From IMG/VR virus record IMGVR_UViG_2609460354_000009: a stretch of 4,376 nt of DNA; one strand, 5' to 3'. Positions 1-3,000 of this stretch are shown piece after piece; position 1 is the stretch's first letter; every line of letters starts with the position of its first letter. This DNA comes from a virus (taxonomy: Duplodnaviria; Heunggongvirae; Uroviricota; Caudoviricetes). A program made the position numbers.

Positions 1-3000
1 CTGGCTGAAGTACGGGCGCAGGGCGTGGATACAGCTATCGAGCACCTGCATAAGAAGTTTAAAGGAACTGTGCTTGTTGGCGTCCCGGTAATGGCGTTGG
101 AGTATTTAGCCGCAGAGCTTCGCAAAGGAGGCAACCAGTGAGCGAAATTAATTACCAGGCACTGCGTGAGGCAGCAGAACGTGCAATTCCAGCAATGGAA
201 CGCCTGTTAATGTTGCCAACTGATGATGATTTGTTAAGTGAACAGGAACTTAAAGATTACGGTGTGGATATTGATGCGCTCAATGCCTTCAAATTTCTGA
301 CCGGACCAGAAACCGTGCTGGCACTACTGGATGAACGGGAAAGGAACCAGCAATACATCAAACGCCGCGACCAGGAGAACGAGGATATTGCGCTAACGGT
401 AGGGAAGCTGAGAGTTGAGCTTGAGGAAGTAAAACAACACGCTGAAGAATTATCCGAAACCAAGGCTGTTCGTAACCAATGGCGGCCAGATATTTGCCCA
501 ATAACCGGACGTGCATTTTTCATGTGGATTGAGCATCCAACATTGGGGAATGTGCCGACATATGGTGGCCCATTAGATAGTTACACCATTCCAACAAAGG
601 ACGGTGACGGTGAGTTTTCATGTGAGCGTTACGATCATGATTTTGGCGGTTGGGTAGAAAGCGAATGTCTTGGGTTATATCTGATTGATGATAGAGAACA
701 ATGCAGGGTCTACGAACTGGAGGAACGCGTTAAGGAACTGGATGCTCGGGAAATATCGCTCCCGGAACGTAGCAGCATGCTTCATCGAACAGATTTTCAC
801 GATGATTACCAAACGGTAATGGCATACAAAGTTTCTGAAGTCATCGCTGCAATCCGCGCCGCTGGCATTCGCATCAAAGGAGAGTGAGATGAACGCTATA
901 ACCAAAGAACGTATCAAATTATTCATTAAAAATCCGCTTGATAACGGACTTACTCGTGGCGAACAAATGGAACTGGCACGAATTGCTCTGGCATCGCTGG
1001 AAGCAGAGGCAGTTATGTTCTGTATATCAGGACAAAATGTAGATTCAGAAGAACATGTATCAACCAGCAAAGCGGTTGTTGATGCCTGGGTTGAAGAATG
1101 GAATCAGGTTGACGGAAGTCCTGGCGAACCACTGTACAAAACTATGCCACTCTACTATCACGCTGCCTTGCCAGCGCCGGTAGTGCCGGATGAAATGTAT
1201 TGGCAGGATGCGCCAGTTGAAGGCAGCAGCAAAGCGGCTGCATACGCTACAGGCTGGAACGCCTGCCGCGCCGCTATGCTTCATGGGAAAGGAGAGTGAT
1301 ATGGCAACTTTAACAAAAAAAGAACGGGCATGGTTGAACGAATTACAGGACGTTCTTGATCGCTGCCCATCACCGAAAAAAATTGGTTTTTACACCATTG
1401 GCGATAAAAGCATTTACCTGTATGACCTGCGCCGCATGGATGAAATCATGGAGGCTCTTGATAATCGTTCGTCAATGGATTGGTGTGTTGCTGTCCATGA
1501 TATGAATGCAGGGTTTGATGAAAAGATTTTGTTCCCCTCATCAGTTGAAAGCACTGCGGGTTAAGGAGTAACACATGACCACTATTACCAAAGAACGTAT
1601 TGAATTGTTCATTAAAAATCCGCTTGAAAACGGGCTTACCCGTGGTGAACAAATGGAACTGGCACGGATTGCGCTGGCATCGCTGGAAGCAGATCCAGTT
1701 AAACGAGTTAACTCAGATCAGATGCGCCGAGTCTGCTTAGAAGCTAATCGCCATTTAGATAAATATGACGCGATGGCGAAAGAGGTAAATAAGTTGCTTG
1801 GACGCATCGCCCCGCCAGCGCCGGTAGTGCCGGAAGAAGCAACTCCGGAAAACGTAGAAATGCTCTCTGGCTATGTTTCCACGTACAAATTAACCGATAG
1901 CGAGCGCGATATTGCTGCCGAAATATGGAACGCCTGCCGCGCCGCCATGCTTCAGTCCGGAAACTTTCGGGAAAACAAGAATTCGTCAACCAATAATTTT
2001 CGGGAAATCGCGGAAACGTCAACCAACTATCCGGCAATTCCTAGTGAGGTGTTGTCCGCAATCCTGAAGGTTGCCAGGATTCGTGCCGATTTCGATGATT
2101 TTGACGGTGACAGGCGAGGTATCGGTGATTGTCTGGATGAGGCTGAGCAAGAGCTTATCGTTACCATTAACAAATATGCCAGTCAGTTGGCAGCAGAACC
2201 TATAGCGCCTAATGACGTTCGAGAGCAGACAGCCATTCCACAAGTTCCGGTAACTCCGGATGGTTGGATAAGCTGTAGTGAGCGAATGCCGGACGACAGG
2301 CAGGAGGTGAATCAATGAGCTGGCCTGATGCAATCGTAACTCTGGGGGTGGTATTCGCAGCAGCGTTTGTTGTGTTCTCGATTTGTCGATGGGGATAACC
2401 ACATGTTCGCTTTGATTCAACGCGGTCAGATATACACGGACAGAGCTGGATACCCCGTGGTGATTACTCGCATCACTGAGCGCTCAGTGTTCTTTCGACG
2501 GATGGACGGACGATCCGGGCGGGTACGCATTGGTGAGTTAAACTGCCTGTTCGAACATATTGACCACCAGGAGTACCGCAAAATTCTCGCGGACACTGAG
2601 CAGGAAAAGCACCTGAAAAAATTACGAGCCATAAAAAGGAAGTAAAGAATGAATAAAGCATTTGAACGATGGGTCCACCAGCGTTACGGCAATCGCTATG
2701 ACCTGACGCGAGATGTTGACGGCTTCTACTGTCGTGAAGTTGTGAAGCGAATGTTTGAAGTGTGGTGCCACTGCCGTGGATGAAAATTTTATGAGGTTGG
2801 CATGCAGACAATCATCTATCAGATAACCCCCAGCAAATGGTGTACGGAGAGAGTCCTCATTGCATCAACAGGGCTAAAGCCTGGCACCATTGAGCGGGCA
2901 AGAAGAAAGTCATGGATGCAGGGAAAAGAATACCGCCATTACGCTGTAGAAGGTGATCCGGGGCACTACAGTGAATGCCTGTACAACATCGAAGAAATTA

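Follow-up and report, generated by a model that had tools for sequence, protein, structure and literature searches.

orf87, a conserved small gene in the ead-eaA slot of a lambdoid prophage, bracketed by the N-terminal modules of EaA-type genes

The window analysed here, 4,376 nucleotides of the Caudoviricetes record IMGVR_UViG_2609460354_000009 of IMG/VR, carries on its plus strand (1301-1564) a gene for an 87-residue protein, orf87, located between two genes that begin with 126-bp direct repeats. In our assessment, orf87 is likely an autonomous conserved gene of the ead-eaA slot, surrounded by shuffled modules and encoding a binding protein of the early lytic cycle. According to this model, orf87 would belong to the early-left 'ea' operon (exo-xis) carried by a lambdoid prophage and occupy a variable slot between Ead/Ea22 and EaA. 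Two features would mark mosaic boundaries: (i) a 42-codon module of EaA-type genes and (ii) a short junction, AAAGGAGAGTGAnATG, combining stop codon and ribosome-binding site. Homologous recombination at the module and at the junction would move orf87 between phages, the bracketing being a by-product of module shuffling and not of a duplication that trapped a gene. The protein would be made early from the polycistronic left-operon transcript, by coupling to the upstream stop codon, as a soluble acidic α/β domain with no relative detected among solved structures. It would bind a conserved host or phage protein during lytic growth, with its C-terminal tail as part of the binding surface, and thus act as an inhibitor of the host-takeover or anti-defence type rather than as a lysogen-expressed exclusion factor.

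Direct reading agrees with the initial annotation on the gene itself, an open reading frame (ORF) running from ATG to TAA with both ends fused into the signals of the adjacent genes: a single T separates the upstream TGA (1297-1299) from the ATG at 1301, and the TAA (1562-1564) lies inside TTAAGGAG (1561-1568), followed by the next ATG at 1575. A Shine-Dalgarno motif, AAGGAG, is placed 6 nt before the start codon, and the product resembles neither neighbour, again as annotated. Among 27 distinct nucleotide versions of orf87 from related loci, the median ratio of non-synonymous to synonymous substitution rates (dN/dS) is ~0.04 for E. coli pairs with dS >0.05, and ~0.1 against distant copies; orf87 is under strong purifying selection. 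The family has a fixed length of 80-90 residues in all of 207 clusters defined at 50% identity. Its motifs, LTKxExxW, CPS, GFYTIGD, YD, FP and the C-terminal STAG, are kept down to ~30% identity. The base composition is less distinctive than the description 'visibly more AT-rich' had implied: the GC fraction of orf87 (0.424) is lower than that of the window (0.466), but places it only at the 12th percentile of all 264-nt windows, with values of 0.429 and 0.452 for the repeat modules and 0.431 for the integrase gene. AT-richness was consequently rejected as a mark of foreign origin.

The label of orphan, on the other hand, proved wrong. Orf87 matches phrog_1714 at full length (E 9.6e-51, residues 1-87 on profile positions 1-87 of 87), and its homologues form 132 clusters at 90% identity and, when 1.84 billion representatives were searched exhaustively with a profile, the 207 clusters at 50% identity mentioned above. 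Gene and family are already catalogued, as ST64T Orf-87, PHROG 1714 and WP_000224227.1, the last an E. coli entry 100% identical to the window protein. The exact protein occurs on at least 1000 contigs, named 'hypothetical protein' only, and the DNA of orf87 is found in 979 of 5,426 complete E. coli genomes (~18%), with 1,106 places on chromosomes and 90 on plasmids, as many as four of them in one genome. The gene is therefore widespread yet accessory and variably present, rather than a core lambdoid gene held at one position in all relatives, the outcome that the initial annotation had named as evidence against its reading. A literature search on the Orf87 sequence, the WP accessions, the PHROG identifier and ST64T Orf-87 returned no papers, and the supplements of accessory-gene and anti-defence screen papers contained no match to Orf87.

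The hosts of the family comprise (i) P22-like phages (ST64T, L), lambdoid prophages, which carry orf87 in the ea region and also after the replication genes, and phage-plasmids; (ii) virulent Chi-like siphoviruses (Chivirus), with 70-72% identity; (iii) rV5-like myoviruses (Vequintavirinae), such as Av-05, with 61% identity; (iv) P2-like Pectobacterium prophages, with the homologue directly after gene A (PF05840; contigs L106 and L107, 3001-3249); and (v) phages of Klebsiella, Serratia, Aeromonas, Yersinia and Vibrio. ST64T Orf-87 (NP_720284.1) has 87 residues, shares the family motifs, and is 58.6% identical to the window protein, and its gene has the position of orf87, with Ead and EaA on either side and xis and int downstream; gp43 of Chivirus FSL SP-030 is 70% identical, and AAG56433 of CP-933R is a member of the same family. 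The GenBank notes already connect these proteins, a Chi-like phage homologue being described as 'similar to Enterobacteria phage ST64T Orf-87' and the ST64T gene being likened to a protein of CP-933R in E. coli O157:H7. The core residues E8, W11, P23, G34-D35, Y41-D42, F78-P79 and the terminal glycine are all present in the window protein. In an 85-sequence alignment, W11, G34 and G87 are invariant, the last in members pre-selected to end in glycine, and E8, P23 and D35 reach at least 90%. As a stand-alone protein of 87 residues, encoded between ead and eaA and upstream of xis/int, Orf87 fits the family profile, and no essential difference separates it from the ST64T and PHROG 1714 relatives, which are likewise without a described function. 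Longer family members (158-205 residues) were considered as domain fusions and rejected, since their extra length seems to come from read-through into neighbouring genes or from start codons called wrongly within them.

The direct repeats at 889-1014 and 1575-1700 stand as annotated, with 112 of 126 nucleotides and 36 of 42 encoded residues identical (a repeat search aligns 877-1015 with 1563-1701, 139 nt at 86% identity), and they are two copies of an N-terminal module, 42 codons long, that is conserved in EaA-family genes and also present in P22 eaA. The two flanking genes have two more blocks in common (1165-1194/1809-1838 and 1255-1283/1926-1954), and BLASTP between their products of 136 and 247 residues gives E 2e-28 with 44% identity, which shows that they are paralogues, unalignable outside the three blocks. 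The module occurs twice because the window holds two EaA-type paralogues, and orf87 appears bracketed for this reason. The 247-residue protein matches EaA of P22 (NP_059588.1), whose first 40 residues, MTTITKERIELF(I/V)K(N/S)PLENGLTRGEQMELARIALASL, are nearly identical to its own. The MTTITKERIELF...ALASLEA module is present in this protein, and the 136-residue paralogue has 36 of its 42 residues. P22 EaA and the 247-residue protein also have a common DUF551 start, GWISCSERMPD, but the middle of the two proteins is unrelated and the window gene ends 16 residues into DUF551 (Pfam match to profile positions 1-16 of 68). The 136-residue paralogue, without a DUF551 match in Pfam, retains only the module and the PAPVVP and WNACRAAML blocks. 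Both flanking genes are truncated or short EaA-type paralogues; since other prophages carry the same DUF551-truncated form with 99-100% identity, the truncation is not peculiar to the window.

The junctions between genes are recurrent as well. The junction AAAGGAGAGTGAnATG stands at two consecutive boundaries (877-891 and 1288-1303), where ...KGE codons are followed by a stop, one base and ATG, and each following gene has its ribosome-binding site within the terminal codons of the Ead-type or EaA-type gene before it; the Ead/Ea22-like gene, ending in ...IRIKGE*, contains in this way the ribosome-binding site of the 136-residue gene. The transition between these two, AAAGGAGAGTGAG ATG, is itself an 'empty' version of AAAGGAGAGTGAT ATG, found directly before orf87. 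AAAGGAGAGTGAnATG also recurs 5' of orf87 in most other contexts, and in most contexts a AAAGGAGAGTGA(n)ATG junction precedes the gene, behind at least three classes of upstream neighbour, each with its stop fused to the ATG: (i) EaA-type, ...HGKGE*; (ii) Ead-type, ...IRIKGE*; and (iii) DUF4014-type, ...YKEN*. On the 3' side, GGA(G/C)TAAC(A/C)C (ATGACCAC) follows orf87 in most contexts and stands before eaA irrespective of which of the two genes, eaI or orf87, comes first. The gene order is Ead, Orf-87, EaA parts, eaG, eaC, xis, int in ST64T, and eaD, eaI, eaA, eaG, eaC, xis, int in P22. EaI of P22 (NP_059589.1, 64 residues) thus occupies the same slot of the early-left ea region as orf87, between eaD and eaA, and the GGACTAACCCATGACCAC leader connects its gene to eaA as well, but it shows no sequence similarity to Orf87 (BLASTP E 6.7) and represents an alternative cassette, not a homologue. 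Since eaI is unrelated to orf87 and sits in the same slot, the ead-eaA slot holds alternative small cassettes. The earlier proposal of a cassette at a conserved junction finds support in a modified form: the site is the slot between ead and eaA, with P22 eaI as an alternative occupant, and the left boundary is exactly the start codon of orf87, behind a recurring AAAGGAGAGTGAn junction.

The boundaries of the transferred segment were delineated in 56 distinct sequence contexts anchored on orf87, with similarity to the window scored at 85% or above. Conservation starts sharply at 1301, the orf87 ATG, or in the junction just before it: 16 contexts match in the 20-40 nt preceding 1301, and 6-7 match further upstream (before 1260). 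Downstream, conservation runs through the stop codon and leader to 1580 in 53 contexts and to 1700 in 30-32, and from 1701 it is left in 8. Only 6 of the 56 have the upstream module together with orf87, and the full 889-1700 bracket is present in at most 135 genomes, compared with the 979 that carry orf87. The mobile unit in E. coli would usually comprise orf87 and the downstream module, a segment of ~400 bp (1301-1700), the upstream module being an occasional extra. The window as a whole is a mosaic: no place in the complete E. coli genomes covers at least 80% of it, and its left part (Ead, the 136-residue gene, orf87 and the module) and its right part (orf87, the 247-residue gene, xis and int) are each present elsewhere at 99-100% identity.

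A synthetic 'deletion junction' query revealed a natural hybrid of the two modules. In E. coli 602687, an Ead gene runs directly into a gene of the 247-residue type through a module that is copy-1-like at most diagnostic sites to approximately nt 99 and copy-2-like from nt 119, which places the crossover in a 20-nt stretch identical in both copies. This allele shows that recombination within the EaA module does occur. It is a natural counterpart of the predicted loss of the interval 889-1574 by recombination between the repeats, the hybrid module being of the kind expected and the prophage backbone a different one. With a 42-codon EaA module, a sharp end in the 56 contexts and a natural hybrid allele, the window provides a clean example of an intragenic recombination joint.

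The structure prediction proposed along with the initial annotation gave a confident AlphaFold2 (AF2) model, with a mean predicted local distance difference test (pLDDT) score of 93.6 and a predicted template modelling (pTM) score of 0.76 from a 36-sequence alignment. The predicted topology comprises a helix (residues 6-20), a hairpin (28-32/37-42), two further helices (43-54 and 61-67) and a strand (71-77). Orf87 is acidic (isoelectric point 4.8, net charge ~-4) and looks like a soluble protein, with no obvious hydrophobic stretch in the translation as read by eye. A fold search of solved structures with the model gave no match, and PDB sequence searches with the single protein and with the 85-sequence profile gave nothing significant, the best hit (E 0.58), a WD40-like GDxxIxVYD hairpin of Prp19, being rejected as a local motif resemblance. 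Pfam and NCBIfam scans of orf87 gave nothing either, and Pfam at E up to 10 with all 85 family members disclosed no consistent family.

The protein ends in a tail, Ser-Thr-Ala-Gly (residues 84-87), with a mean pLDDT of 74 for residues 81-87. In an unselected set of divergent family representatives, 92 of 109 have glycine as the terminal residue. The tail is conserved at the protein level: it is retained through synonymous changes in all four codons, including a switch between AGY and TCN serine codons, and it persists even beside an unrelated downstream context. Ubiquitin-like proteins and the Cap2-primed cGAS/DncV-like nucleotidyltransferases (CD-NTases) of type II cyclic-oligonucleotide-based antiphage signalling systems (CBASS) use a terminal glycine for conjugation, and share with Orf87 a flexible tail with a conserved terminal glycine. 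By analogy, the STAG-COOH tail might be recognised by an E1/E2-like enzyme (Cap2 of type II CBASS, or a Bil-type system), with Orf87 as decoy substrate or inhibitor, a reading that draws on tail conservation and this literature resemblance and that we consider a long shot. Ubiquitin-like proteins adopt a β-grasp fold, whereas the predicted succession of helix, hairpin, two helices and strand in Orf87 does not correspond to it; their tail is Gly-Gly, compared with Ala-Gly in Orf87; and a domain scan of the window found no E1/E2-like gene near orf87. If true, the decoy reading would define a new class of anti-defence proteins in temperate and virulent enterobacterial phages.

The proposed role in lytic growth is deduced from the retention of Orf87, at 61-72% identity, by virulent phages; a function in exclusion is less likely for the same reason, since the family also occurs in virulent phages. 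A binding role appears the most likely because the protein is small, highly conserved and without a cofactor or catalytic signature. The clusters that contain relatives of orf87 are early or replication-proximal ones. Genes for replication or nucleotide metabolism are close by in several backbones: after gene A in P2-like prophages, near DNA polymerase genes, after O/P in lambdoid prophages and, in Chi-like phages, near ThyX, a gene resembling 3'-phosphoadenosine-5'-phosphosulfate (PAPS) reductase and a nucleoside 2-deoxyribosyltransferase. These neighbourhoods hint weakly at DNA metabolism or nuclease-type defence. PADLOC at E up to 0.1 assigned no family to orf87 or its neighbours, and on the plus strand, within the reach of consensus scans, no promoter-like or terminator-like site flanks the gene, the counts of such sites not exceeding the shuffled expectation. 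Small early non-essential exo-xis genes of lambda and Shiga toxin (Stx) phages are reported to bias the lysis-lysogeny decision (PMC7093339, PMC10834534). The products of this region, including Ea22, Ea8.5, Orf60a, Orf61 and Orf63, belong to the same neighbourhood and class as orf87, with no sequence relationship; unlike the lambda and Stx exo-xis genes, the Orf87 family is also found in virulent phages, which makes a purely lysis-lysogeny role unlikely.

Several considerations weigh against the model of a mobile, autonomous gene for an early lytic binding protein. The 56 contexts derive from the best 80 viral-contig matches and a few genomes, and are biased to E. coli copies at 97% identity or above; the hybrid of E. 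coli 602687, located in another prophage backbone, demonstrates a process and not the gain or loss of the interval in this window; and the fact that EaA-type genes so often adjoin orf87, in divergent genera too, could mean functional coupling rather than linkage alone. Moreover, anti-defence proteins often evolve fast, and the very high conservation of Orf87 would be unusual for one of them; it fits a conserved target without naming one.

The competing explanations fare less well. The least probable of them takes the ORF as a chance open frame or decaying remnant without a product, in keeping with databases that offer no function beyond 'hypothetical'; the conservation pattern refutes it, the dN/dS of ~0.04 and the same length and motifs in 207 divergent clusters being joined by a confident AF2 model and a canonical Shine-Dalgarno motif. 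Hardly more credible is the tandem duplication of an EaA-type gene that trapped orf87 as cargo between the copies, as initially suggested. Two paralogues in direct orientation do flank orf87, with three common blocks in the same order, but copy 2 is nearer to P22 eaA (114/126) than to copy 1 (112/126), which excludes a recent duplication. The paralogues are, in addition, unalignable outside the three blocks, orf87 occurs with the downstream module and without the upstream paralogue in ~50 of the 56 contexts, and the full bracket is restricted to 135 genomes or fewer among the 979 with the gene.

Two further readings concern function. Orf87 and the downstream EaA-type protein could form a two-gene functional unit, the EaA module working with Orf87 or binding it, since a gene with the xTKExL...ALxxLEAxPV-type module starts 8-12 nt after orf87 in most E. 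coli contexts, the same adjacency is seen for the homologues in Edwardsiella, Leclercia, Erwinia and Serratia, in the rV5-like phage Av-05 and in metagenomic phages, and the pair is putatively translationally coupled. An obligate coupling loses weight because of the Chi-like phages, in which an unrelated 237-residue protein follows Orf87, and the P2-like Pectobacterium prophages, where the homologue after gene A has no EaA-type neighbour; variants from Salmonella and metagenomes (L099, L110, L014) also lack the pairing, P22 has EaA without Orf87, and EaA-type genes are so abundant in this region that chance adjacency is often expected. We regard such a unit as unlikely, although not negligibly so. 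A lysogen-expressed moron that benefits the host through superinfection exclusion, defence or lysogenic conversion seems distinctly improbable. Its small size, accessory nature and variable presence would suit a moron, as would its place after gene A in P2-like prophages, a region described as a hotspot of antiviral systems (PMC9122126). However, orf87 lacks both a promoter and a terminator of its own (hits of consensus scans at or below the shuffled expectation), its start and stop are fused to the neighbours, PADLOC gave no match, no obvious hydrophobic stretch was seen by eye in the translation, and copies 61-72% identical reside in Chi-like and rV5-like phages, which, being virulent, do not form lysogens. 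The account that remains likely is thus the one given at the outset, of an autonomous gene in the ead-eaA slot with an early lytic binding function.

As a discovery, this carries little weight, the family being already in databases and the repeat geometry being what the mosaic 'ea' regions of lambdoid and P22-like phages ordinarily show. Orf87 is nevertheless among the more widespread uncharacterised small phage proteins of Enterobacterales, and its wide distribution, strong constraint, confident model without a match to a solved fold and conserved terminal-glycine tail make it a reasonable candidate for functional screens. This combination stands out, and leaves a small chance of a new class of inhibitor.

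The window forms one string of tightly packed, co-oriented plus-strand genes with fused stop and start signals (Table 1). The host gene mlrA (yehV) directly follows the integrase gene in three relatives (L004-L006); this prophage family thus uses the mlrA attachment site, and from the adjoining of integrase and mlrA in close relatives the window is taken as the early-left 'ea'/exo-xis arm of a lambdoid prophage. Neither Rfam families nor tRNAs were detected when the window was scanned for them.

Table 1. Genes, repeats, junctions and other elements of the 4,376-nt window
Feature	Position	Strand	Remarks
Ead/Ea22-like gene, 249 aa	138..887	+	Pfam PF13935 Ead_Ea22, E 3e-29; relatives named 'ead/Ea22-like family protein' (PGAP)
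Junction AAAGGAGAGTGAG before ATG at 889	877..888	+	read directly
Short EaA-type paralogue, 136 aa	889..1299	+	N-terminal module, PAPVVP block and WNACRAAML block; matches phrog_5117/60/660
Repeat copy 1, EaA N-terminal module, 42 codons	889..1014	+	112/126 to copy 2; 105/126 to P22 eaA
Junction AAAGGAGAGTGAT before orf87 ATG	1288..1300	+	AAGGAG at 1289-1294; upstream TGA at 1297-1299
orf87, 87 aa	1301..1564	+	ATG to TAA; phrog_1714 match
Codons of conserved C-terminal tail Ser-Thr-Ala-Gly (residues 84-87)	1550..1561	+	
10-nt leader GGAGTAACAC of EaA-type gene, after orf87 stop	1565..1574	+	recurs in most contexts
EaA-family gene, 247 aa	1575..2318	+	BLASTP to P22 EaA, E 5e-27; partial DUF551
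Repeat copy 2, EaA N-terminal module	1575..1700	+	114/126 identical to P22 eaA
27-aa ORF	2315-2398	+	hydrophobic, MSWPDAIVTLGVVFAAAFVVFSICRWG
DUF4222 gene	2403-2645	+	
44-aa ORF	2649-2783	+	
Excisionase gene	2802-3056	+	
Tyrosine integrase gene	3090-4376	+	

The 247-residue gene contains an in-frame 33-nt tandem duplication (1962-1993 versus 1995-2026, 78% identical) encoding NFRENKNSSTN and NFREIAETSTN, and, in the region 2228-2398, its stop codon overlaps, as ATGA, the start of the hydrophobic 27-residue ORF, which has no PHROG match. The 136-residue paralogue has an uninterrupted reading frame and is 100% conserved in several phages, yet in the relatives L097 and L098 (3701-4093) PGAP gives it as two pseudogene fragments, 'incomplete; partial in the middle of a contig'. 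This call is probably an artefact of protein-homology-based calling on modular genes, and the annotation in those relatives may need correcting.

Viral contig L017 carries two copies of orf87 in one ea region, at 14-158, upstream of Ead, and at 1327-1590, after the 136-residue gene. In two unrelated backbones, Chivirus FSL SP-030 (L111, 3964-5321) and a Salmonella prophage (L099, 2598-3605), the orf87 homologue has a gene of the PAPS-reductase family no more than one or two genes away, and in the P2-like Pectobacterium prophages small uncharacterised ORFs are located between the orf87 homologue and the portal gene, within the described hotspot of antiviral systems.

Some host labels attached to orf87 call for caution. 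Short contigs in metagenome-assembled genomes (MAGs) labelled 'Segatella copri' (L007, L008; Bacteroidota) and 'Collinsella sp.' (L015; Actinomycetota) contain E. coli prophage DNA that matches orf87 and the sequence on either side of it at 100% identity, almost certainly through binning contamination. Two records of ~4 kb, OR847247.1 and OR848698.1 ('Listeria phage LM 4-11-1' and 'LM 4-14-1'), contain an orf87 homologue with 72-73% identity, as in Salmonella Chi-like phages, and are probably mislabelled as to host or contaminating fragments.

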